A stretch of DNA of 32,000 nt from Haloquadratum walsbyi C23 (GTDB lineage Archaea > Halobacteriota > Halobacteria > Halobacteriales > Haloferacaceae), in contig NC_017457.1 of NCBI RefSeq assembly GCF_000237865.1, positions 30,001 through 62,000 on the forward strand. The letters run 5' to 3'. The notes under the pieces were generated by a model. That model was not told the origin of the DNA. It saw nothing but the letters and a program-made list of their open reading frames with translations, and searched no databases. The translations under genes and the position numbers were made by a program. Below, in pieces: positions 988 to 32,000 of this stretch; the first letter of the stretch is position 1; each line of letters begins with the position of its first letter.

Positions 988-2334
988 TCAACTTCCCTCA
1001 AAAAAATTGTTTATTTGCGCATTGACCACAGATTTGATAAGATCTCCTTCGTGTTTAGCATCCTCAAGTCGAAAGTCAGTTTCGAGAGTCTCAACCACCA
1101 CTTCTGAGTCGTCAATAAACGTGTATTCCTTATGTACACCACTACCGAAACCACGTCCCCGTTTTTGTGACGTGACAAGATTATACGTCTCAGCCTCGTT
1201 CATGTATCTCAGATAAGATTCACGTGATTTTTCCTCAACATCTAAAATATCGACGAGAAACTGATACACTCGATAAGCAACTGTACTGGGAATAGCGTCC
1301 AAATTGCGCTGTGAGTAGACAGAAGAAACAGCAGTAGCGTAGAGTGAAAGCTTCTTTTGGGTCGATAGTCCCTGCATTTGGGTCAGTGTTCGATCCCGTC
1401 GAGCTTCTTTCTGGGCATGACGAACATGATTCTCATGAACCATATCCTCTGTTTCACGGTCGGCGATTTCTCCTGCCTTCCGGAATAAATCGATTGCTTT
1501 TCGGGCGTCACCATGATCCTGAGCGGCGAGAGCAGCGCTTAACGGGATGATTCCACCGTTAAGCACATCATCTTGGTATGCATCTTTACGACGTTTAAGA
1601 ATCGCTTGTAATTGATCTGCGTCGTAGTCGGAGAAGATGACGTCCTGTGGATTGAAAGAACTCTCCGCTCGTCCGTCAAGATTCTGCATGAATCGTGGAT
1701 CATTCGTAATTGCAGCGACGGATACGTGTCCTCCAATCCGACCAAGGTGTGATGCTCGAGATAATTGATAAAGCAGCTTCGAGTATGCCGGTTCATCATC
1801 TGGATTACGTCGTCGACCCAGCAAGAGGTCAATCTCGTCAAGAATGATGATGATTGAATCAAGGTTGTTGCTCAAGATCTCATAAAATCGATTTAGCTTC
1901 TGGTCAGTCGAGACACCACTCTCAGGGACACCAATATCGACACCAGCCTTCTGGGCAGCATTCTCTACGAGTCGGTAGATAGCCCGGTCATGAGAGCTGA
2001 CTGTTTGACAATTGATTTTAATAACGCCGAATCGATCTCCCTGTGAGTTGGCGAGTTCAAGAACCTGCTCGCAAACTGCATTGATAATGAGTGACTTCCC
2101 AGTCCCTGAGGGACCATAGAGAAGCATATTTGGCGGACGATTTCCCTGCAATGCCGGTCGTATATAAGAGATAATATTATCTAACTGATCATCACGACCA
2201 ACAATTCGGTCCTCATCGATTACAGTATCTAGCTCAAGAAGCCCTTTATTCCGAAAAACAGAGTTCTGATTCCCCTCCTGAAGACGAGCTTTGATAGACT
2301 GAGAGGTAGAATGTTGGTTGTCGTCATCAGCCAT
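988..2334 (-). CDS. orc1: Orc1/Cdc6 replication initiator (AAA+ ATPase)
   Basis: 448 aa. Walker A is GPSGTGKS and Walker B is IIILDEID, with sensor-like arginines and a C-terminal winged-helix-like region. Flanked by ORB-like boxes. Confidence 0.95.
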   Translation of the reverse strand: MADDDNQHSTSQSIKARLQEGNQNSVFRNKGLLELDTVIDEDRIVGRDDQLDNIISYIRPALQGNRPPNMLLYGPSGTGKSLIINAVCEQVLELANSQGDRFGVIKINCQTVSSHDRAIYRLVENAAQKAGVDIGVPESGVSTDQKLNRFYEILSNNLDSIIIILDEIDLLLGRRRNPDDEPAYSKLLYQLSRASHLGRIGGHVSVAAITNDPRFMQNLDGRAESSFNPQDVIFSDYDADQLQAILKRRKDAYQDDVLNGGIIPLSAALAAQDHGDARKAIDLFRKAGEIADRETEDMVHENHVRHAQKEARRDRTLTQMQGLSTQKKLSLYATAVSSVYSQRNLDAIPSTVAYRVYQFLVDILDVEEKSRESYLRYMNEAETYNLVTSQKRGRGFGSGVHKEYTFIDDSEVVVETLETDFRLEDAKHEGDLIKSVVNAQINNFFEGS

Positions 2335-3794: not shown

Positions 3795-4245
3795 TGAGCA
3801 GCAACAGTAAGACCATCTTATAACCGAGCGATTTCCATCAACTATTGAGAGCGTCAGCCAATTTCATTATCTCATCTATGTTCGATACATTGCTGTGATG
3901 ACAGAATATATTTATACTCTCGTTATGAGATATATATATTCATGTGTACCAAACTAGTGAACCCATACTAACACTGTTGTTAGTGCCCAAATTGGTATTG
4001 GTGTTAGTGAGCATCAAAAAAGACGCAATTACACCCTCTCAACGAAAGTAAAGTTGTGTAGGAGCAAAGTATAATTGTATTAATAAGTTTGGTTAGATGA
4101 TACTATACCTTTTCTAACGCTATTTTTACTTACTTTCTTACATACATGCCCAATTCGCCACTAACAACACTGTTAGTGGCAGTACACTATTATATAATTG
4201 AGTTAATAAGGTAGAATCGTGTATTTAAGAATCTCTGCATATCCA
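3795..4245 (+). repeat. ~450-bp non-coding repeat, copy 1, with a palindrome-bounded ~210-bp core
   Basis: Aligns with 10141-10600 in the same orientation and 14335-14640 inverted. The core is bounded by palindromes actaaca-ctgt-tgttagt (3967-3984) and ccactaaca-acac-tgttagtgg (4158-4179). No ORF. Confidence 0.9.
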
Positions 4246-5138
4246 TGAGGACAATTCAGTGGGATGTGATCATATGTGAATGTATCATATGTGCTTGACC
4301 GGTTAGCATCTATCAGTGATTATTCTCCATTGAGAACCGGATATCACAGGTAATTCTTTGATTAATCATTCATACACTGACAAGCAGATAATGTCCAGCA
4401 GAACAAACATGTGAAAATCTGATAACTCGGTAGATTGAGAATCATAGTATTGAGTAATAAAATGATTATCTGACATCGTTCCATCTTCTCGGCTCAAACG
4501 CATGATTCTATACTTAAAATGAAAAATCACAAGCTCCCAATCAGATGGTTTCGTTTGCCCAATCGTCGATCTGAACAACTGGTCGAACAGTTACATTTTT
4601 ACATTTCGTGATGAGTTTTTACACTGATTTCATTCGGATATTGAAAGGTATTTCAAGGAATTTACTGACATCTCTGCACGAGCCGAGTCTGACTGTTTCT
4701 GAGAAACTCTGATGTAATAATATGCTCGCCTATTATCAATTTATTGATGTTAATGTGTTAAAGCTTAAATCTATTATAATTCGGTGCTCAACCCCACAAG
4801 TAATCAGTAATTGTGTATTAATGACTATCATCGCACGTCTACATTCAAATTTAGGATTTGCGGAGTACTTACGCAGCTCAGATATATATAGTATACTATG
4901 ATTGGACGTACTAATAATTAATACTATACGGTCATATCCAAATATTTGATATAATATGTGACTGATTGGTTTGAGTATGCTCACTCATATTAAAATCTTC
5001 ATATTAATCTAATGAGATATCATAATTGGTCGTAATATATTCTATGATTACCTTAAATACTTGATATGTTTTATTTACGTGTTAATTGATACATGAATTA
5101 ATGGAATTGTATATAAATTAGTATAAGTTACTGTACAT

Positions 5139-5696
5139 ATGAGCTATTGTTCAGGCTGTGGAACAGAGCTTAGTGGAGAAGAAACATTCTGCCCAGACTG
5201 TGGGGAGTCGATTGATAAAAATAATACTGTAGAGACTAATCTAAGTGAATCAGCAGACACCAATCCAGCAAAAATAGCTGATACGTCTGAGAGTGAGGAT
5301 GACGGAGTTCAATGGAAACAGGTTGGAATGGCTGGAAGTCTTGCATTAATCCCTGCGTTCATTGCATACTTAGCGCTTTCAATTGCAACTGGAGGAGATC
5401 CTGTTGGTATCGTGTTCTTAATTTCACTCCCTGTATTTGGATATCTCCTTTACCAGCGATCGACATTCATTACAATGATTGGCGGGATGTGTTACTATCT
5501 CTCGATTGAGTTTCTCCTCAGCCCATTCTTTCTACTACTCTATACTGTCGCATTCGCAAGTGATAGCACTACCACTGCAGCTGGACAAGCGGGAGCTGCT
5601 ATTGGTGGGTTTGCACTAACGATTGCTGCATTCGTTGTTGGATTGCCACTAGCAATTGCATTTTATCTTGTTTCACGGCGATTAGATCAGACATAG
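5139..5696 (+). CDS. zinc-ribbon membrane protein (about 4 TM)
   Basis: N-terminal CxxC-N11-CxxC (CSGCGTELSGEETFCPDCG), then an acidic linker and four hydrophobic helices. Confidence 0.8.
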   Translation: MSYCSGCGTELSGEETFCPDCGESIDKNNTVETNLSESADTNPAKIADTSESEDDGVQWKQVGMAGSLALIPAFIAYLALSIATGGDPVGIVFLISLPVFGYLLYQRSTFITMIGGMCYYLSIEFLLSPFFLLLYTVAFASDSTTTAAGQAGAAIGGFALTIAAFVVGLPLAIAFYLVSRRLDQT

Positions 5697-5725
5697 TATG
5701 AGTAAATCCATTAAATATAAATAGT

Positions 5726-6610
5726 ATGAGTTTTTGCACGAACTGCGGAACAGAACTCAGTGGAGGGGAGTCGTTCTGTCCAAATTGTGGAGAGTCTGTT
5801 CACTTAGATACTGATAGGGATGGTCTGCGAAACTCAACCGACGATAATCCAGCAGATGCTGGTGCTAAATCAACCAACGTAATTAAAAATAGTAGTATAG
5901 CAGAGGATCAGAAAGATAAGATAAGAGACATAAATCTCACTTTAGGTAAATCAATTGCATATCCTGTCGGATCATTATTAACTTTTTTAGGAGTTATCTC
6001 GTTATTTTCGGACATTGGCGCAGGTATACTAATCCTATTTGCAGGCATCATCGCACTTCCAATCATGCGGTCAAGAATCAAAGATAGAGTGGGTATAGAA
6101 ATAAATAGATGGGTTGCGTCAGCTATCGTAATCATATCAGTAGGGGCAGGAGTAGCAGTTTTACCATCGGAGACTGGCGGAGATAGCAGATCAGCTGTGC
6201 AAAATAATGAGAGTGAAATAAAAACAATTGAGCAACCGGCGAGCGAATTGACACCAACCATTGATAGCTTCGAAAGCGGATGGCGTGTTGTTGAGAGGCA
6301 GGGTGGAACTGCTGATTTTGTTTCCCCAGAGGCAAGCGAACGAGTGGTATACCAAGTCATGGTGTATAGGAACGTCAGCGAAGCACAATCGGCAGTGGTA
6401 TCTGAAGAGCCCGATAATATAGCCACAGATAACCCAGATTTTGGCGATGGAGGTTTCAAATATCAAATTGCTGATAGGGAATATAAGATAGTATTCTATA
6501 AAAAAAATGTCGTATGTAGCACAACATACGGAGCTGATGTCATGACATTCAACGCTGAGTCGAACGCAGACAAATTCGCCAAGATTTGCTTAGACTCAAT
6601 TGAAAGCTGA
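5726..6610 (+). CDS. zinc-ribbon membrane protein paralogue (about 3 TM plus C-terminal soluble domain)
   Basis: The N-terminus MSFCTNCGTELSGGESFCPNCGES is nearly identical to that of the upstream gene. It is followed by three hydrophobic helices and a 140-aa acidic C-terminal domain. Confidence 0.8.
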   Translation: MSFCTNCGTELSGGESFCPNCGESVHLDTDRDGLRNSTDDNPADAGAKSTNVIKNSSIAEDQKDKIRDINLTLGKSIAYPVGSLLTFLGVISLFSDIGAGILILFAGIIALPIMRSRIKDRVGIEINRWVASAIVIISVGAGVAVLPSETGGDSRSAVQNNESEIKTIEQPASELTPTIDSFESGWRVVERQGGTADFVSPEASERVVYQVMVYRNVSEAQSAVVSEEPDNIATDNPDFGDGGFKYQIADREYKIVFYKKNVVCSTTYGADVMTFNAESNADKFAKICLDSIES

Positions 6611-10677: not shown

Positions 10678-11745
10678 ATGATATTAAGTATAGAAAAAAG
10701 TGGAAAACTAGATGATAGTCTTGAGACGACAAAGCTCTCTGATCTGAATTTTACTGAACCGGAGAATCTTCAGGAGTGGATAATTGAGAGACCAGCTATC
10801 TTAGGTGAGGAACTACTTGTAATCACATCAGAGTATGCTGGATTCCAAGATACACTTGATAGGTTAGATATCCTCGCTATTGATACAGATGGAAAATTAG
10901 TTGTCGTTGAACTCAAACGGGACCGTGCTGATCAAACAACCGACCTCCAAGCAATCAAATACGCAAGCTACTGCGCCACTTTAACTGCAAAAGAAGTGCA
11001 GAAAGAATATCGCTCGTTTTGGACTGGACGAGATGGTGCAGAGATTGCGTCTGAGATCGAAACCGAAGATGTCAGTCAACAGTTCGCAGATTTCTTAACT
11101 GAGTTCGAGGGAGACCCGCCTATTACCGATGAAGGGTGGGTCGACTTTGAGCTTAGTGAGAGACCACGTATCATACTCGCCGCTGGGAGCTTTAGCACTG
11201 AAATTACGTCTCCAGTATTATGGTTGACCAACGAATATGGAATGGACGTTACTTGTATAAAAATCGAGGCTTATGAGCATCAGGAGCATGTGATTCTAAA
11301 CTCTCAACAGATTATTCCTATTCCTGAAGCTGAGGAGTATATGACCAGACGTCGTGAAAAGCGGGAGAAACAGCGAGAGTCCTCATCAGTCCGGACAATT
11401 GAACTACTTCTTAGAGAAAATGTGCTCTCTAAAGGTGATGAGGTCTACTTTAATTCTGACAAGGCACCGTCTGACCCCGACCCCGAGTGGTCTAGTTCCG
11501 ATGAATTTTGGCGAGCAGAAATTACTGGGGAACGAGGTCAAAGTAACAATGTGAAGTGGCGTGGGAAAGAATACTCATTCACCGGACTCACGAAGGAAGT
11601 GTTGTACCAATCAAATGACCGAGACAAAACTAACTCACTCAACGGCTACAAGTACTGGAAGTCTCCCGATTCTGATAACCGAACGCTAAGACAGCTCCGT
11701 GATCGTGAGGTAGGTGGTTCGGATCTAGGCGATCAAGATGAATAA
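10678..11745 (+). CDS. NucS/DUF91-like PD-(D/E)xK nuclease with C-terminal RAMA-like domain
   Basis: RLDILAIDTDGKLVVVELKRDRADQTTDLQAIKY matches the D...ExK...Q..Y core of NucS-type nucleases. The C-terminus FWRAEITGERGQSNNVKWRGKEYSFTGLTKEV...LNGYKYWK...LRQLRD resembles the RAMA domain found in restriction and methylase-associated proteins. Confidence 0.8.
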   Translation: MILSIEKSGKLDDSLETTKLSDLNFTEPENLQEWIIERPAILGEELLVITSEYAGFQDTLDRLDILAIDTDGKLVVVELKRDRADQTTDLQAIKYASYCATLTAKEVQKEYRSFWTGRDGAEIASEIETEDVSQQFADFLTEFEGDPPITDEGWVDFELSERPRIILAAGSFSTEITSPVLWLTNEYGMDVTCIKIEAYEHQEHVILNSQQIIPIPEAEEYMTRRREKREKQRESSSVRTIELLLRENVLSKGDEVYFNSDKAPSDPDPEWSSSDEFWRAEITGERGQSNNVKWRGKEYSFTGLTKEVLYQSNDRDKTNSLNGYKYWKSPDSDNRTLRQLRDREVGGSDLGDQDE

Positions 11746-22362: not shown

Positions 22363-22939
22363 ATGTGATCATTATACCTATCCAACATATGCTTCTCGCT
22401 TGATAATTGAATTGTTTGTAATGTAGAAGTGAGCTACCCCGACCTACTTAGCTGTCGCAGACGGCTTTCTTGTAAAAGGAGTCCTGCCCTTGTTCCGAAT
22501 AGTACGGGAACGACTGGCAGATATCATTCTAAGTTTCCCTGTCGAAGTCCTCAGAGTGGAATTATACAGATGAAATCCCCTGAAGCCAATGGCTAAATGA
22601 GGCTCAGGACCGATCATTGATTCACAGTTGCAACTAACGTCGAAGACGACTGAGATTCTTTTTATTCTAGTGATAGTATCGGCATATGTTTTGAATAACG
22701 TCTAAATGTACGACTTACAGTCCAAAAGCCTCACAAGTTATCCACTATCTATTAGACTGGAATTACTGTAGCTAAGACTCTATTTACATATCCTAACTTT
22801 GATTAAATATAGAGCAGGTTAGCATGGAGTGAGGTAGAGAGGGTTGAGCAGTCCGATAGACTCTCAATTTGCTTAGAGCAGATAGCTGAGTCCTTTGTAT
22901 CTACGTAGGTTATTTTACTTTCAATTACGCAATGGATAT

Positions 22940-25066
22940 ATGGAAATTAGCAAACTTCTTGATCGAGTAGAGTCGAATGCTATTGTTCTGCCAGAGTTCC
23001 AGCGTGAGTTCGTTTGGAAGAACTCACAGGCAAAGGAGTTGATGAACTCACTTTTCGAAGAGTTCCCTATCGGGAGTTTGCTTACGTGGGAAACAGAGAA
23101 TCCTCCTGAAATTAAAAACGAAGCAATAGACGAAGAAAAACATGCACTTTTTGAGGTCCTACTTGATGGGCAACAACGACTGACAGTATTGTATATGTTG
23201 ATTAAAGACGAAATCCCACCGTACTATACCGAGGACGATACCGAGAATGACCCACGGGATCTTTATCTCAACGTCGGCGATGGAAAGTTCCATTTTGAAA
23301 ACAAGATGACTCGTGAAGGCGTTGAGTGGGTTAGGGTAACTGACTGTTTCAATGGTGAGGTTGATGGGGTGACTATTGCTCAGAAAAAATTAGGTGATAA
23401 GCCAGAGCCTGTGTTGGAACTTTCAAAAGAGTATAACCAACAGATCGCTCAACTCCAAAATGTCACGACTCGTAGTATCCCAGTCGAGACCCTCCCGAAG
23501 TCAGCGGATATTCATGAGGCAATCGAACTCTTTGATAAAATCAACTCACAAGGAACACACTTGAGTGATGCAGAGTTGGCATTAGCGCATATGAGTGCTG
23601 AATGGGCGTATATCCGCCGGAATATGAAACAAAAGCAGGCTGAGTTAGCTACCCAAGGATTTGAGTTCAATCTCAATTTCTATGTGAAATGCATGATTGG
23701 AACTCTCACCGAAACAATGACCTACGAACAGGTATACAACGTGTCAGAGGATGAACTCAAATCTCAGTGGTACGAATTAGCTGGTAAGGATAATAAGGAT
23801 GGTATCTTTGATTACGTGATCAACGTTCTCCAAAATGACGGACAGATTCCGTCATCAGACTACATCAACACTCGTGACGTTCTCATTCCGTTTATCGTAT
23901 ATCTGAATAAACAGGAGAAGCAACTATCTCACGACGAGAAAACGCAGTTCCTGCGGTGGCTCTACTCAGGGATGATGTGGTCACGGTACAGTGGCTCATC
24001 AGATACGACCGTGGAACACGACATTTCACTCTTGGATGGGGAGTCTCCGACTGACCAACTCATGCAGGAAATTCGTGATGAGAGAGGACGGATAGAGGTG
24101 CAGGCATCTGACTTGCAGGGACGTGGGAAACGAACACGTCGGTTCTATAATATGGTACGGACCGTAATTCGTGCGAATGATCCTGTGGACTGGAAAACAG
24201 GTGAGCCACTCAAAGGGAGTTACGAACTGGAATCCCACCACATCTTCCCAAAGAGCAAACTCTATGAAGAGTATGACTCAGGTAACTCTACACACCGGAA
24301 GCTGGTCAACGAAATTGCTAATCGTGCTTTCCTCACTCCAGCCACAAACAAACAACTGGGAGACGAACTACCAGAGAGTTATTTACCAAAAATAATCGAA
24401 GACCATCCGAGTGCATTGGATTCCCAATTCATTCCAGATAATGGAGAGCTTTGGAAGTTACAAAATTACGAAGACTTCCTCGCCAAGCGGCGGGAATTAT
24501 TAGCTGATGCTATCAATGACTATATGGAAAACTTAGTAGTCGGAGAAGAAGGAAACGAAGAACAAGAGTCAGCAGACGAACTTATCCACAAAGGTGAGAA
24601 TACTCGGATTGAGTTCAAGGAGTCTTTCCTGTACGATGTATATCGAGAGCAGGCAAATAAAGATCTAAAAAAGGAGGTAGCAAAGGAAATCTGTGCGTTG
24701 ACCAATTCCGAAGGTGGAGCTGTAGTAATCGGGGTCAAAGATGATACGAAGGAGATCAAAGGTCTCGACCGAGACTACAATTTGATGGAAAAAGGTAAGG
24801 ATTCATTTGGACTCCAATTACGACAAGAAGTATCAAACAGACTAGGACAAATGATGGCTACCGCATATACTCATGTGAGGTTTGAAGAAGTTGATGAAAA
24901 AGAAGTCTGTGTCATCTGGGTTGATGATAGTCCTAAACCTGTTTTCTTTGAAGAGGATGATAGTGAGCAGTTCTATGTTCGAACCGGCACATCAGCTCAG
25001 CCTCTGAGCATTCAAGAAGCCAATAAATACATCGACGAACACTGGAATCAAAGCCCGATAGCATAG
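22940..25066 (+). CDS. GmrSD-family type IV restriction-like protein (DUF262 + DUF1524) fused to a C-terminal AlbA_2/Schlafen-like domain
   Basis: The N-terminus has LPEFQREFVW and LLDGQQRLTVLYML (DUF262/ParB-like NTPase). The centre has ESHHIFPKS...NEIANRAFLTPATNKQL (DUF1524 His-Me/HNH-like). The C-terminus has GENTRIEFKESF...EICALTNSEGGAVVIGVKDD.KEIKGL (AlbA_2). I take ATG 22940 as the start; ttatttta lies 23-30 nt upstream, and the track start at 22895 is a TTG. Confidence 0.9.
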   Translation: MEISKLLDRVESNAIVLPEFQREFVWKNSQAKELMNSLFEEFPIGSLLTWETENPPEIKNEAIDEEKHALFEVLLDGQQRLTVLYMLIKDEIPPYYTEDDTENDPRDLYLNVGDGKFHFENKMTREGVEWVRVTDCFNGEVDGVTIAQKKLGDKPEPVLELSKEYNQQIAQLQNVTTRSIPVETLPKSADIHEAIELFDKINSQGTHLSDAELALAHMSAEWAYIRRNMKQKQAELATQGFEFNLNFYVKCMIGTLTETMTYEQVYNVSEDELKSQWYELAGKDNKDGIFDYVINVLQNDGQIPSSDYINTRDVLIPFIVYLNKQEKQLSHDEKTQFLRWLYSGMMWSRYSGSSDTTVEHDISLLDGESPTDQLMQEIRDERGRIEVQASDLQGRGKRTRRFYNMVRTVIRANDPVDWKTGEPLKGSYELESHHIFPKSKLYEEYDSGNSTHRKLVNEIANRAFLTPATNKQLGDELPESYLPKIIEDHPSALDSQFIPDNGELWKLQNYEDFLAKRRELLADAINDYMENLVVGEEGNEEQESADELIHKGENTRIEFKESFLYDVYREQANKDLKKEVAKEICALTNSEGGAVVIGVKDDTKEIKGLDRDYNLMEKGKDSFGLQLRQEVSNRLGQMMATAYTHVRFEEVDEKEVCVIWVDDSPKPVFFEEDDSEQFYVRTGTSAQPLSIQEANKYIDEHWNQSPIA

Positions 25067-27585: not shown

Positions 27586-28168
27586 ATTTATATTTTATTT
27601 AGAATCTCCCATCTGAATAGTAAAGATGTGCTTTGTTTCATCTAGAATTTGTTATTTAGATGTATTAATTGTTTTCTCAGATAATTGTAATTATACATGT
27701 TATGATATAGATTTGAATCATCAGTTAATTTACTCCACTTCCAGTATGTAAACGAATTTGATATATTCTCACCATGTGTTAACCTGCAATGAAGAGAGAG
27801 AAGGGGTCTATAATCCTACTTACACAATTTCATATATGTCCTTCACCAGGCTCATAGGTTGACCAATTTCTTGAAACAATATTTTATGGGATTAACTTCT
27901 AGAATTACAGTAATATCACTTATCATCGTGCCATCCAGGCAACGAGAGAACCGTGACTGACATTATCAGTTATTCTACTAGAAGAGCACATATATATGAT
28001 ATGAAATGTTGGACATACTCAAATTAGTAGTTATGATAGTCATTATTGTTAGTTATCATATTTTATTATTTAACATTAAGATCCATATTTATGCGGATAG
28101 ACTCAATAAAGATGTTTCGACGGGTGACGAATACCCCAATTGTAAATTATGAGAACATCATAGCAAAA

Positions 28169-29251
28169 TTACGTTGGTAGTTCTGCATTCACTGGACCGA
28201 TATCTTCCCTGTAACGGAAGTATCCAGCTTCAGATAGCTCGTTTGCTAAGTGATGGCGATGACAAAAATGATCCTGATCTCCCTGTGGTTTTGGGAATTT
28301 TTCGATGCACATCAGTGCTGGCTTCCCAGACTCTTCGAGAAACTCACCGAACTGCTCAAATTTGTCGTCCTGATGTATACTCCACATATACCAATTTTCA
28401 AAACAATCGTGTCCAATGGCTTGCTGTTTATATGGTTCAACGATAACTCGTGGAACACCAAAGTCGGGCTTATGAATATACTCAATACCATCTATGTTTG
28501 AGAACTGATTTTCTAGTACATCTACGTTGAACTCTGGCTTGTACATTGATTCGCCGGAGGCACGGACATCGACCAAAATGTCTATTTCATTCTCCCGGAG
28601 TTCGTCAACTAACTCAGTGAATTCTTTTCCGCTGTACCCCACTGTGGCAATGGTATCATTCTTAAATCGCTCCAAACGATCACGAGCTTCGTCACGACTC
28701 CACCCGTTCTCAATGAGTCGGGTGGTAAACTCCTCCTGATCTTCTTCAGGGAGCTGAGCGATGACTAACCCTTTTCTTGCCGCTAAGTCCCCGCTCTTTA
28801 CACGTCTGTACACCGAATCAGCTAAATCCATCACCAGCGTGATTTTATCCTGAACTGTCCGTGGCGCCAACCCAGTTATATCACCAATTTCCTCTTCAGA
28901 GAGATCGTAGTCGGTGTAAAGTTCCTTGCAGAGTTCTCCGATCTCTTCATCTTTCATCTCTTTCTGCATTTTGTTCGTTTTCACAGCAAGACCACGAGCG
29001 CTTTCATCTCCGAGGTCTTTGATGGTAGCCTCAATCTCTGACCAGTTCAGACGCCGTGCAGCCTCAAGTCGATGACTTCCTGATATAACCTCATACTCAA
29101 CATCTTTTTGTCCCGACGCAGGGCGAGCGATGATAGGGTTCCATTGACCATCCTCGGCAAATGACTCTCTTATATCCTCCACATGGTCATCATCAATTTC
29201 CTCTCGAATCTGGAAGTCTGGCAAATCTATTTTGCTAAGAGCTACTTTCAT
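28169..29251 (-). CDS. ParB/Srx-like N-terminal domain plus HTH, fused to a DUF488 domain
   Basis: I take ATG 29251 (MKVALSKIDLP...) as the start. EYEVISGSHRLEAARRLNW is the ParB-type GxxR box and EEIGDITGLAPRTVQDK is an HTH. The C-terminus TIATVGYSGKEF...DILVDVRASGES.YKPEF...IEYIH.PDFGVP...ALMCIEKFP......CHRHHLA is the DUF488 pattern. Confidence 0.85.
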   Translation of the reverse strand: MKVALSKIDLPDFQIREEIDDDHVEDIRESFAEDGQWNPIIARPASGQKDVEYEVISGSHRLEAARRLNWSEIEATIKDLGDESARGLAVKTNKMQKEMKDEEIGELCKELYTDYDLSEEEIGDITGLAPRTVQDKITLVMDLADSVYRRVKSGDLAARKGLVIAQLPEEDQEEFTTRLIENGWSRDEARDRLERFKNDTIATVGYSGKEFTELVDELRENEIDILVDVRASGESMYKPEFNVDVLENQFSNIDGIEYIHKPDFGVPRVIVEPYKQQAIGHDCFENWYMWSIHQDDKFEQFGEFLEESGKPALMCIEKFPKPQGDQDHFCHRHHLANELSEAGYFRYREDIGPVNAELPT

Positions 29252-29552
29252 AACTACTTTTATACAGGATACGAAGTAAAACACTTTCTTAATAATTATA
29301 CAGTTGATACGATATGCATAGTGTGAGACATAGCTAGGCATATGCAGACGTTGATGACGTCTACTCCATGGCTCTGAAGTACTAGATGTACAGATCTTGT
29401 TCTGTCCTGATGCCTGTTTTATTATTCATTGATATATATTTATTATCTTCTGGGCTATCTATGGATAAGTATCTAAAAATCAATTAACTCAGAGTTCGGG
29501 CAGCTCTGAAATTAAGATCATATTGAGTCTTTCTCAAAATCTGGAGGCATAA

Positions 29553-30359
29553 TCAGTTCCGTTCGGCAGGATGTACAAATTCTGTACTAACCTTTGGATA
29601 CTCACTCCATAATGGGTCGTATATTGGAATGTTATCTTTCATCCATATAATATTAATAGAAATAAACGATGTTCGCTGATTATTCTGGTTCCCGACAAGA
29701 ATCCAGTGATTATAATTATTGCTATCAAATTGATAAAAACTTTCCAGCTTAGCAGCAGAACTAATATTATATTTTTCAATGGCACGATATCCGCCCCACT
29801 CTAACAAGGTTTTATTATGATATCCTTGTTGAGTTTGGCAGCTAGAACAAGTAAACTGAATCCGGATTTCTCTATCAAACTCTTCTCTTGTTTCGGGACG
29901 CCATCTTTCCATTTCCTCGAACAGCTTCGCTTGGGTCAACCCGTCACTATCATCTTCCCATTCTTTCAGCTCCAGCCCACTAATTGATTTGGGTCGTATG
30001 ATTCCAAGACTTCGACCTCTTTGTTTGATTGACTCAACGCATTCATCCTCAAGTTGGGTGAGAAGTGTAGCCCGCTTCTCACGTTGATATTCTCCCGTCT
30101 TTTTAACACAGGAAGATTGGTTTCTACGTCCCAACTTCCAACTTTCATCACGGTTATCTTTCGGGTTTCGCTTTGCCTCAACTTCAACGATGTCCCATCT
30201 TTTGAACAATTTTTTCCTAGGTTTACACGGGTAAAGTCGAATAAAGCCACGGTGTTTTGACCACGCACCAGTACAGGTAGTGAGATCTCCACCACTGATC
30301 TCTTCTGGAGCAGCTCTACCTAAAATAACGACATCTTCTAACGTTTGCGAGGGGGTCAC
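29553..30359 (-). CDS. orphan hypothetical protein (268 aa, GTG start)
   Basis: The only long frame here, and less acidic than its neighbours. It has an RWDIVEVEAK segment (a possible D...ExK), a CSSC pair and a WxLVGNQ C-terminal block. I recognise no family. Confidence 0.65.
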   Translation of the reverse strand: MTPSQTLEDVVILGRAAPEEISGGDLTTCTGAWSKHRGFIRLYPCKPRKKLFKRWDIVEVEAKRNPKDNRDESWKLGRRNQSSCVKKTGEYQREKRATLLTQLEDECVESIKQRGRSLGIIRPKSISGLELKEWEDDSDGLTQAKLFEEMERWRPETREEFDREIRIQFTCSSCQTQQGYHNKTLLEWGGYRAIEKYNISSAAKLESFYQFDSNNYNHWILVGNQNNQRTSFISINIIWMKDNIPIYDPLWSEYPKVSTEFVHPAERN

Positions 30360-30547
30360 AGGTCCACCTCATATTCACCGAGACTCACTAATGAGCTGGT
30401 GATACAAGCCATGTCAATACATAACTATGTCAATCCATATAAATTTACGTCCACAAATAACTCAATTAATACAAACGACTAATATGATTATGTTTAACTT
30501 ATAATAGGCAACACAAGTTAGATAGAGACATTGAATACGATTCCGCC

Positions 30548-30787
30548 TTATTCCTCTCCTGCTTCTTGTGCTTCGATAGTCAATTCGCCCCGTTCAGTTA
30601 GTGAATAGACCTTCCGACGCCCCTCTTGTTTTCCTTTAATATACCCAGCGTCCTCCAGCTGTTGCATATGCTCATATATCGTAGGGCCTTGCTTCCCGAG
30701 TTCATCTGCTAGCGCATAGCCGTGTCGTGGCTCTTCACGGAGCTTTTCGAGAATCTGGCGTTTTGCGTCTGTCAGCGTAAGTCCCAT
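30548..30787 (-). CDS. PadR-like winged-helix transcriptional regulator
   Basis: RHGYALADELGKQGPTIYEHMQQLEDAGYIKGKQEGRRKVYSLTERGE matches the PadR hallmark (hGY...Y..L..Le..G.i....grrk.Y.lT..G). Divergent from the methyltransferase operon. Confidence 0.85.
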   Translation of the reverse strand: MGLTLTDAKRQILEKLREEPRHGYALADELGKQGPTIYEHMQQLEDAGYIKGKQEGRRKVYSLTERGELTIEAQEAGEE

Positions 30788-30870
30788 TCAATCTTTGATT
30801 AGGATAGATAGGTAATAAGATATACATATGCAAACACCTATGCATAGATGAAATACTATTTATAATCGCA

Positions 30871-31608
30871 ATGGTGGAACAGACAAGTAACTCTATGTCC
30901 AAAAAGACTAGTAATCAAATGTATATCGTTGATCTCAGGGAAGCAGTTTCCAGTAATCAGACGCTTAGGGAGGCACTCACTGAGTCAAATAGCCTCTGGA
31001 AGCCTCTCTATAACCGCATGGGTTCTTCAGAAACTCTTTGGATCATCGTTTCAAATGAATATCGAGGCGGGAAAATGTGGCCTGCTGCGATGGCTGCAGC
31101 TGATTACATTAGAAATCAAGCGAGTTTTATTTTGAAAAATACTATTACCGTCCATAATATTTCTGATGATAATAATGTTGCGGATATGATTTCTGCGTAC
31201 AATGAAATTCTCTTTTTTGTTAAAGACAAACGTAATTATCAGTTTCACAAAGATGAAATTCGTGTCTCACATGTGTATGAAGGAAATGAGTGGGGAGGTG
31301 AGAGAGAGAAAGGAACTAGCGCATACCATGATACTGAAGTCCGTCGGTACAACCCAGACGGGAAGGATCCTGGTAATGTGTGGCTTGAGGAAGACCGATC
31401 ACAAACCCCAAATCAAGAACTTGACGAAACCAGACCGATTCCATTTGATGAAAGTATCCGCCGATGCATTCGGGTTGGGTCGCAGGAAAAAGAAAAAATC
31501 CACACCATTTGGGCCACTAATCTAGCAGATATCATAACGTGCGAAAATCGGGAATTCATTGAAGTTGATGTCGATGTCCTCCAATCTGAGTCCGAGAGAA
31601 AATCATGA
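30871..31608 (+). CDS. catalytically degenerate paralogue of a beta-class N4/N6 DNA methyltransferase (start may be ATG 30895)
   Basis: It retains MTase framework blocks: LWIIV..., FILKNTITVHN, YNEILFFVKDKRNYQFHKDEIRVSH, YNPDGKDPGNVWLEE and RPIPFDESIRRCIRVGS. No (D/S)PPY motif is present, and the DPFxGSGTT AdoMet site is replaced by HTIWATNLAD. Its stop overlaps the ATG of the next gene (ATGA at 31605-31608). Confidence 0.75.
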   Translation: MVEQTSNSMSKKTSNQMYIVDLREAVSSNQTLREALTESNSLWKPLYNRMGSSETLWIIVSNEYRGGKMWPAAMAAADYIRNQASFILKNTITVHNISDDNNVADMISAYNEILFFVKDKRNYQFHKDEIRVSHVYEGNEWGGEREKGTSAYHDTEVRRYNPDGKDPGNVWLEEDRSQTPNQELDETRPIPFDESIRRCIRVGSQEKEKIHTIWATNLADIITCENREFIEVDVDVLQSESERKS

Positions 31609-32000
31609 ATACTGTCAATTCCATTGATGCACTGAGTGTCTATTGGCAATCAAGCGAGGACATGAGTATCGTTGAGCCTGAGAGTGTTCAAACCGTCATC
31701 ACCTCTCCACCATACTGGGATCTCAAGGATTACGGGCATGAAGACCAGATTGGGACTACTGATGAATCGTATGAACACTATCATGACCGCATGAAAACTG
31801 TCTGGAAGGAGTGCTATGATGTTCTTAGAGAAGATGGGACAATGTGGATTGTTGTGGACACAGTCATGGAACGAGGTGATCTCCAGTTGCTTCCATATCA
31901 TATCATTCAGAAGGCAGAAGAAGTCGGGTTTGTGTCTCAGGATTTAGTCACTTGGTACAAGCCAACTGCTATCGCAGGGATGACAGATCGAAATATTGTG
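31605..32000 (+). CDS. DNA methyltransferase, N6_N4 (beta-class) family, SPPY motif; 5' partial, runs off the window
   Basis: Hand translation gives MNTVNSIDALSVYWQSSEDMSIVEPESVQTVITSPPYWDLKDYG...REDGTMWIVVDTV...LVTWYKPTAIAGMTDRNIV, with no stop before 32000. It is absent from the ORF track because it is open-ended. Confidence 0.85.
   Translation, partial: MNTVNSIDALSVYWQSSEDMSIVEPESVQTVITSPPYWDLKDYGHEDQIGTTDESYEHYHDRMKTVWKECYDVLREDGTMWIVVDTVMERGDLQLLPYHIIQKAEEVGFVSQDLVTWYKPTAIAGMTDRNIV

Follow-up and report, generated by a model that had tools for sequence, protein, structure and literature searches.

A conserved methyltransferase paralogue without catalytic motifs, the probable dedicated partner of a beta-class DNA methyltransferase in Haloquadratum walsbyi

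Introduction

DNA amino-methyltransferases of the beta class are dimeric, and structural work suggests that they have to be; within the dimer, the DNA-binding region of one chain lies opposite its partner's catalytic domain (PMC7544214). In M.EcoP15I, for example, sequence recognition falls to one subunit and methylation to the other (PMC7544214). Heterodimers in which one partner has eroded are listed for eukaryotes only, namely MTA1-MTA9 and METTL3-METTL14 (PMC7544214). A locus in a 32,000-nucleotide (nt) stretch of Haloquadratum walsbyi C23 (contig NC_017457.1, positions 30,001 to 62,000; hereafter the window, to which all coordinates refer unless a locus is named) raises the question of whether a prokaryote can have such a partner as well. 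Here, an open reading frame (ORF) of 245 amino acids (aa), gene A, runs into a downstream methyltransferase ORF, gene B, which is itself followed by a further ORF, gene C. The original prediction, made from the sequence alone, was that A is a catalytically dead paralogue of B and its obligate partner. This study assessed that proposal by homology searches, structure modelling, comparison of related loci, and weighing of the alternatives.

The features on which the argument turns are the following.

30871..31608, plus strand: gene A, non-catalytic beta-class DNA-methyltransferase paralogue, 245 aa (ORF, Pfam, fold, conservation)
31605..31608, plus strand: ATGA stop/start overlap of A and B, translational-coupling junction (sequence; tight junctions in relatives)
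31605..32000, plus strand: 5' part of gene B, beta-class amino-methyltransferase, 131 full codons of 260 (Pfam, contig L001)

The window ends within gene B. The metagenomic contig L001, which differs from window positions 27802-32000 by 1 mismatch in 4199 base pairs (bp) and reaches 1670 bp further, supplies the remainder: a B protein of 260 aa, in which SPPY occupies residues 34-37 and DPFLGSGTT, encoded outside the window, lies close to the C-terminus. Just past the window end, B is followed by C, an ORF of 303 aa. By these motifs, the downstream gene encodes an intact enzyme.

Results and discussion

Gene A is a methyltransferase homologue that lacks motif IV and the cofactor loop

The proposal that A is built on the N6_N4 methyltransferase framework was borne out by profile searches. 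A matches Pfam PF01555 (N6_N4_Mtase) with E 6.3e-9 and 36.5 bits (cut-off 26.7), and an hhalign comparison of the A-family with the B-family gives a probability of 94.7% (E 6e-8) over 179 collinear columns. Both pairs of sequence blocks quoted originally are genuine correspondences, as LWKPLYNRMGSSETLWIIV / VWKECYDVLREDGTMWIVV is the top BLASTP high-scoring segment pair of A versus B, and FILKNTITVHN / FVSQDLVTWYK stand in register in the profile-profile alignment. The match of A is confined to positions 17-183 of the 221 in PF01555, so that A lacks both ends of the profile, the start with motif IV and the end with motif I; the in-window fragment of B covers profile positions 1-86, SPPY included.

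By sequence, the only match of A in the PDB was M.MboIIA at E 0.18, and the A-family profile had no PDB match at E<=0.01, so the fold was established via AlphaFold2 and Foldseek. The AlphaFold2 model, computed with 84 family members, has a predicted local distance difference test score (pLDDT) of 80.4 and a predicted template modelling score of 0.78, with low confidence in the N-terminal 11 residues and in the loop 135-157. In a Foldseek search against the PDB, the top 38 matches are all beta-class DNA amino-methyltransferases (E 4e-8 to 1e-4), among them M.MboIIA, M.RsrI, M.BceJIV, rotifer N4CMT, M.PvuII, TTHA0409, CcrM, and M1.HpyAVI. A thus combines a significant profile match with a Rossmann-like methyltransferase fold and with the beta-class order of motif IV region, target recognition domain (TRD), and motif I region.

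The two features that mark a beta-class N6/N4 methyltransferase as an enzyme, motif IV and motif I, are both absent from A. Among 120 A-family members, none carries a motif IV of the form [DSN]PP[YFWH], and none carries the FxGxG / x-G-x-G glycine-rich loop (motif I) that binds S-adenosylmethionine (SAM). The tetrapeptide at the SPPY-equivalent position takes 73 forms among the 120. In A itself, 'MYIVDLREAV' lies opposite 'VITSPPYWDL' of B (multiple alignment) and 'HTIWATNLAD' opposite 'LDPFLGSGTTA' (hhalign). The reported lack of (S/D)PPY and of a recognisable SAM loop is therefore real, and the profile alignments reveal no motif that had been missed. These results confirm that A is a full-length beta-class N6/N4 DNA methyltransferase homologue without motif IV and SAM loop. 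As a separate observation, the fused protein P0376 (528 aa) has 'YPPI' at the motif IV place of its N-terminal dead domain, which looks like a partly eroded intermediate, similar in this to the EPPL of METTL14.

NCBI annotates A as 'DNA methyltransferase', and it might be asked whether A is a cryptically active enzyme with non-canonical residues, A and B then forming an M1/M2 couple that methylates one strand each of an asymmetric site. Type IIS systems commonly have two methyltransferases, paired or fused, and bacterial relatives of A do lie in operons with several methyltransferases. Such activity is nonetheless extremely improbable: not one of the 120 relatives has either motif, the SPPY-equivalent position is hypervariable, conservation is lowest in the motif I/II-equivalent region, and bacteria have a separate, complete M1 besides the dead-plus-active fusion. 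Methylome-to-gene assignments or REBASE-style predictions that count A as an enzyme on the basis of its database name would be wrong.

Gene A is maintained by purifying selection

The loss of both hallmark motifs would also be expected of a decaying, functionless duplicate of B or of another methyltransferase. Several lines of evidence speak against this. In haloarchaea, the A family comprises at least 150 protein clusters at 90% identity, and an exhaustive profile search found 119 clusters at 50% identity distributed over archaea and bacteria. The alignment of 84 sequences contains 31 invariant columns, and the reading frame of A is intact, without frameshifts, in 12 genomes. The ratio of non-synonymous to synonymous substitution rates (dN/dS), limited to five locus pairs because synonymous sites are saturated in all others, is 0.074-0.113 for A and 0.048-0.077 for B in the same pairs. 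A is under purifying selection. A pseudogene, one of the outcomes that the original prediction had named as a refutation, is ruled out by the dN/dS of about 0.1, the intact frames, the invariant columns, the archaeal-bacterial breadth, and the maintained fusions described below. A scan of IMG/VR viral contigs found no relatives of A.

Conservation is unevenly distributed over the protein. It is highest in the TRD-like segment, residues 125-176, with a mean majority fraction of 0.88, intermediate in the motif IV-equivalent N-terminus (0.5-0.56), and lowest in the motif I/II-equivalent C-terminus (0.48). This pattern is the reverse of what an enzyme shows.

Genes A and B are inherited as a pair, often as one chain

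In a scan of a genome collection, 12 haloarchaeal loci from about ten genera were found, and in all 12 A is directly followed by a B orthologue (54-71% identity). The same holds for divergent metagenomic relatives that stand alone and come from contigs with guanine-plus-cytosine (GC) contents of 0.33-0.74: in 4/4 loci looked up, an SPPY methyltransferase is directly next, at a spacing of a 4-nt overlap, a 23-nt overlap, or a 4-nt gap. Together with fusions in many lineages, this answers the question, raised with the original prediction, of whether the pair is conserved as a pair.

In the window, the ATG of B (31605-31607) and the TGA of A (31606-31608) form the 4-nt ATGA overlap (...aaatcATGAat...) that had been reported. 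Its equivalents in the related loci are as follows.

ATGA junction: the window and L001, L009, L013
TGATG or TAATG junction: L003, L007, L008, L010
TAGATG junction: L004, L005, L006
TAAtATG junction: L014

A tight junction thus recurs in 11/11 unfused loci, showing that the overlap in the window is not due to chance. The overlap had been taken to imply stoichiometric co-expression; translational coupling is the safer term, as an ATGA overlap cannot by itself establish stoichiometry.

A single frame of ~500 aa encodes both A and B in Halomicrococcus (L011) and Haloarcula rara (L012). A search with such a fusion as query retrieved eight haloarchaeal-type A-B fusions (P0121-P0128, 497-508 aa) and a large family of bacterial ones of about 441-450 aa, from Herbinix, Ruminococcus, and many metagenomes, which align over 80-94% of the haloarchaeal fusion. 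One bacterial fused homologue is P0143 of Herbinix hemicellulosilytica, and sizes in the bacterial family as a whole extend to about 550 aa. The order is always dead domain, then active domain: a motif-less A-like domain precedes a B-like domain with TSPPYW and DPFLGSGT. From the 119 A-family clusters, 66 members were fetched for motif inspection; 46 are stand-alone proteins without either motif, 17 are long, and one, P0385, is a stand-alone active enzyme. Thirteen of the 17 long members carry the A signature GKDPGNV ahead of their sole motif IV and motif I; P0416 has the same order without an exact GKDPGNV match, bringing to 14/17 the long members with motifs only in the C-terminal unit. The other three are P0421, which has an extra N-terminal methyltransferase domain, P0425, a single active enzyme, and P0426, which is truncated and has no motif I; the further motif copies in P0421 and P0425 lie in separate methyltransferase domains outside the A-like unit.

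Across 13 loci, the distance matrix of A correlates strongly with that of B (Mantel r 0.91, p 1e-4), which shows that A and B co-evolve.

Two further arrangements were seen among the relatives. In P0130 (735 aa), P0421 (953 aa), P0426 (651 aa), and the loci L016-L020, additional methyltransferase domains are fused ahead of the dead-plus-active unit; in P0130, for instance, a complete M1 precedes the A-like and B-like domains, in that order. A low-GC metagenomic locus (L023) encodes an extra M1 (388-1239 of that locus, plus strand) with 'TSPSY' instead of SPPY and with DIFSGSGT kept, which may be another eroded or variant motif IV.

Gene B is complete, and A and B show complementary losses

SPPYW and DPFxGSGTT are invariant in the B-family alignment, B matches the PADLOC model MTase_II (E 1e-42) over residues 2-254 of 260, and its nearest solved relatives are TTHA0409, M.MboIIA, and CcrM. 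From its sequence, B appears to be a complete, intact beta-class methyltransferase and is predicted to be active. The best NCBIfam names for B are adenine-specific, but their scores are far under cut-off; SPPY is commoner in N4-cytosine enzymes.

Two known arrangements of paired methyltransferase genes can be set apart at this point. M.AquI and M.EcoHK31I (alpha/beta) are C5 enzymes whose single methyltransferase activity requires two polypeptides, encoded by adjacent or overlapping genes. Those polypeptides are complementary fragments of a single fold, whereas A represents the complete fold a second time and B holds all the motifs. Because B is complete and A a whole fold, A-B is not a split enzyme of the M.AquI type, and a role of A as a fragment completing B is ruled out. 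In enzymes of the M.FokI type and in type IIS M1/M2 systems, as in A-B, two methyltransferase-fold units are adjacent or form a single chain in a restriction-modification (R-M) operon. Both units of M.FokI-type doubles carry motifs IV and I, each methylating one strand. A-B is not such a double, because its N-terminal unit lacks both motifs in every member.

Active relatives of A suggest how the pair may have arisen. A shows far greater similarity to two active single-domain enzymes, P0385 (E 6e-25) and P0228 (E 3e-23), with 31-33% identity across about 175 residues, than to B, its own partner (E 0.004), and B resembles the same two enzymes along its full length (E 2e-57). A four-way alignment shows that B is without a 13-residue piece between the motifs, 'RVxxxYxGxxWGG', which A and P0228 have kept, and that A carries a further 12-residue insertion in this inter-motif region. 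The solo enzymes P0228, P0235, and P0229 have no A-like neighbour. The inter-motif regions of P0235 and P0229 are longer than that of B, and the piece absent from B is just partly present in P0235. A B that is short of a recognition piece is thus always accompanied by A, and A conserves precisely that segment most, a relation that suggests complementary degeneration: A and B would both descend from one ancestral stand-alone enzyme. It is quite conceivable, at roughly even odds, that an ancestor resembling P0228 or P0385 was duplicated and subfunctionalised, the target-recognition module alone surviving in one copy and the catalytic/SAM module alone in the other.

A proposed division of labour between A and B

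The explanation that best accounts for the data as a whole is that A is a dead, dedicated partner which forms a heterodimer with B, with divided roles, within an R-M module; this reading is given a probability of about 0.7. Under this proposal, A and B would form a permanent hetero(pseudo)dimer equivalent to the homodimers of other beta-class enzymes. A, which keeps and over-conserves the recognition-like segment, would bind or recognise DNA, and B, with its SAM and catalytic motifs and its shortened recognition segment, would flip and methylate the base; gene coupling or fusion would ensure that both are produced together. We infer from the patterns above that the A-B complex exists, that A contacts DNA, and that B depends on A. 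The parts of this proposal differ in strength: A is very probably the dedicated non-catalytic partner of B, and the case for its supplying recognition in trans is evenly balanced.

Three points weigh against the proposal. B is complete by motif content and its nearest solved relative, TTHA0409, is a homodimer, so that B could in principle work alone. The recognition-like loop 135-157 of A was modelled with low confidence. Thirdly, the nuclease assignment of C is tentative, given that its best structural match reaches only E 0.03.

A could instead be a structural scaffold that replaces the second subunit of an obligatory dimer and stabilises B, with B holding all the specificity. METTL14, for comparison, is largely a scaffold. 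In CcrM, the role of the second subunit is limited to holding the non-target strand (PMC7544214). B, for its part, is equipped with the full set of catalytic and SAM motifs and has its own inter-motif region. A role of this kind is rather unlikely: the conservation of A peaks in the recognition-like segment (0.88; many invariant Arg, Lys, His, Tyr, and Trp) and not in the Rossmann core where the dimer interface would lie, and B has lost part of the recognition segment relative to its solo relatives. The invariant residues of A in this segment include R131, H134, Y136, W141, R145, Y152, H153, R159, Y160, N161, and K165.

Relation to eukaryotic and prokaryotic two-subunit methyltransferases

Like MTA1-MTA9 and METTL3-METTL14, the pair includes a paralogue with eroded catalytic motifs. 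METTL3-METTL14 combines an active subunit with a paralogous, non-chemical subunit of eroded motif IV that supports substrate binding (PMC7544214), and a comparable complex is predicted for A-B. The two differ in that METTL3-METTL14 is eukaryotic and acts mainly on RNA, whereas A-B is prokaryotic, is genetically linked, coupled, or fused, and occurs in an R-M context; in addition, METTL14 retains a recognisable EPPL, and A has no remnant at the motif IV position. Closer in substrate is the ciliate DNA 6mA complex MTA1c, in which MTA1-MTA9 is likewise a DNA amino-methyltransferase with one active and one inactive beta-class-like subunit (PMC7544214). MTA1c is, however, eukaryotic, belongs to the MT-A70 clade, and needs two extra homeobox-like DNA-binding subunits, whereas A itself keeps a recognition-like segment. 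PF01555 is the only Pfam family matched by A at E<=1, so that no MT-A70 match was found at that threshold, and, for the part of B inside the window, it is the only family above its curated cut-off. Foldseek aligns A weakly with METTL3/14 and MTA1 (E 4e-3 to 1e-2; about 6e-3 to 1e-2 for METTL3/14). By these searches, A-B falls outside the MT-A70 clade; in function it appears to resemble METTL3-METTL14 and MTA1-MTA9.

Among prokaryotic enzymes, the architecture proposed for A-B is that of M.EcoP15I Mod2 and CcrM, in which, on an asymmetric site, one subunit recognises and the other methylates (PMC7544214); CcrM is found both among the Foldseek matches of A and among the sequence matches of B. 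Those enzymes are homodimers of two competent subunits, whereas the roles in A-B appear to be hard-wired in two genes or domains.

A full-text literature search found no published description of a dead beta-class partner in prokaryotes; REBASE lay outside this search, and its curators may have noticed such pairs. A paper on the fused methyltransferase MhoVII (PMC12898733) apparently concerns a different architecture. The original remark that such partners are rarely described in prokaryotes therefore stands for the literature but not for sequences, in which they are not rare and fused versions are widespread in bacteria.

Dedicated dead partners have been documented only in eukaryotes (PMC7544214), and the A-B family would extend this solution to archaea and bacteria, with coupled genes as well as fusions. 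If the proposal is true, A-B would represent a widespread, hard-wired prokaryotic form of the division of labour that is seen transiently in EcoP15I Mod2, with DNA recognition supplied by a pseudoenzyme, either in trans or, in the fusions, in cis. It would also offer a prokaryotic parallel to, and a possible origin model for, METTL3-METTL14 and MTA1-MTA9. As a tractable system, it could be used to study what a dead subunit contributes, how a homodimer subfunctionalises, and how specificity works when recognition and catalysis lie on different chains; small soluble proteins such as A and B should suit crystallisation and assay.

The A-B pair probably belongs to a type II restriction-modification module

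The surroundings of the pair, upstream of A, include the following elements.

30548..30787, minus strand: PadR-type winged-helix regulator, 79 aa, divergent from A, putative controller of the module (Pfam)
30824-30832, no strand: half-site-like ACATATGCA upstream of the palindrome (sequence; direct repeat)
30837..30848, no strand: palindrome CCTATGCATAGA in the PadR/A intergenic region, putative PadR operator (conservation in relatives)
30859..30865, plus strand: TTTATAA, TATA-box-like, 5' of gene A, inferred archaeal promoter (sequence reading)

Gene C lies beside the A-B pair in at least nine loci from haloarchaea; the distant locus L021 has it too (28% identity, E 1e-27). C has 139 homologues, and its invariant residues are E88, D117, and D132-x-K134 (ExK in L021), which, in a confident model with a pLDDT of 80.7, are located on a helix-strand-strand-strand core. 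C has no match in Pfam, NCBIfam, or PADLOC, and the C-family profile has no meaningful one among the PDB sequences. Foldseek gave nothing significant for C (E 0.03-0.6); its weak matches are enriched for PD-(D/E)xK nucleases, namely Hjc, RecU, AvaII, FokI, HindIII, MunI, and EcoRV, and one UniRef entry names a C-family member 'Restriction endonuclease'. In Halomicrococcus (L011), two C paralogues (3807-4700 and 4874-5815 of that locus, both on the minus strand), 60% and 35% identical to the Haloquadratum C, were seen beside the fused A-B.

The PadR gene (Pfam PadR, E 2e-11) keeps its upstream, divergent placement in at least nine loci of haloarchaea and also in L021 and L024, which are distant. 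The palindrome, which is CCTATGCATAGG in most relatives, occupies the identical position in the intergenic regions of 9/9 haloarchaeal loci (L007 and L010 have single-base variants) and is probably a PadR operator. At the sequence level, B supplies the complete methyltransferase of a type II R-M system. A-B is therefore, as far as the gene content suggests, the probable modification arm of a type II R-M module that would consist of a PadR-like controller, the palindrome, A, B, and a putative PD-(D/E)xK nuclease, C.

Clostridia provide an instructive variation, as the fused A-B gene is there beside an unlike nuclease (741 aa, HNH) and an extra complete methyltransferase. A-B thus does not depend on the type of nuclease, which is HNH in Clostridia and of the C family in haloarchaea. 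This bears on a further alternative, in which A acts outside the methyltransferase as a regulator of the R-M module, for example as a DNA-binding decoy or as a modulator of the timing of nuclease C. In its favour, timing control is a requirement of R-M systems, a DNA-recognition-like segment persists in A, and the module seems tightly regulated, as indicated by the PadR gene and the conserved putative operator. This role is nevertheless quite improbable, considering that the in-frame fusion partner of A in many lineages is B and not the nuclease, that A-B recurs beside unrelated nucleases, and that PadR is already there as a dedicated regulator.

The start codon of A is uncertain, with three candidates: 30871 (245 aa), 30895 (237 aa, the NCBI call, P0001), and 30919 (229 aa, invariant Met17). 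Within the optional N-terminal extension (MVEQTSNS...), at 30883-30894, a nucleotide stretch (T/A)CAAGT(A/T) is near-invariant in 8/9 loci (equivalents in L003-L010), the proteins of which are just 46-58% identical to A. This nucleotide conservation bears on which start codon is the true one, as the stretch could be a regulatory or 5' untranslated region element instead of coding sequence.

Other features of the window

The window has a GC content of 0.41 and contains several further genes of interest.

988-2334, minus strand: Cdc6/Orc1-type replication initiator
5139-5696 and 5726-6610, plus strand: two adjacent ORFs that start with a zinc ribbon / double zinc ribbon (domain search)
10678-11745, plus strand: 355-aa protein with a NucS_C-like nuclease domain
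22895-25066, plus strand: 723-aa protein with GmrSD_N, GmrSD_C, and a C-terminal Schlafen AlbA_2 domain, type IV (modification-dependent) restriction-like
28169-29341, minus strand: 390-aa fusion of ParB_N, HTH_ParB, and DUF488 (PADLOC PDC-M19, M19A, E 9e-20)
29553-30359, minus strand: 268-aa protein without Pfam domains (PADLOC PDC-M19, M19B, E 8e-13)

The replication initiator fits a plasmid-like replicon, although a megablast of window positions 28000-32000 had no match among the plasmids of PLSDB, and the GmrSD-type protein makes the region look like a defence island. The genes at 28169-29341 and 29553-30359 match both components of the candidate defence system PDC-M19, and both recur near A-B in L011-L014. 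In Herbinix, the operon with the A-B relative adjoins a Cas13a gene.

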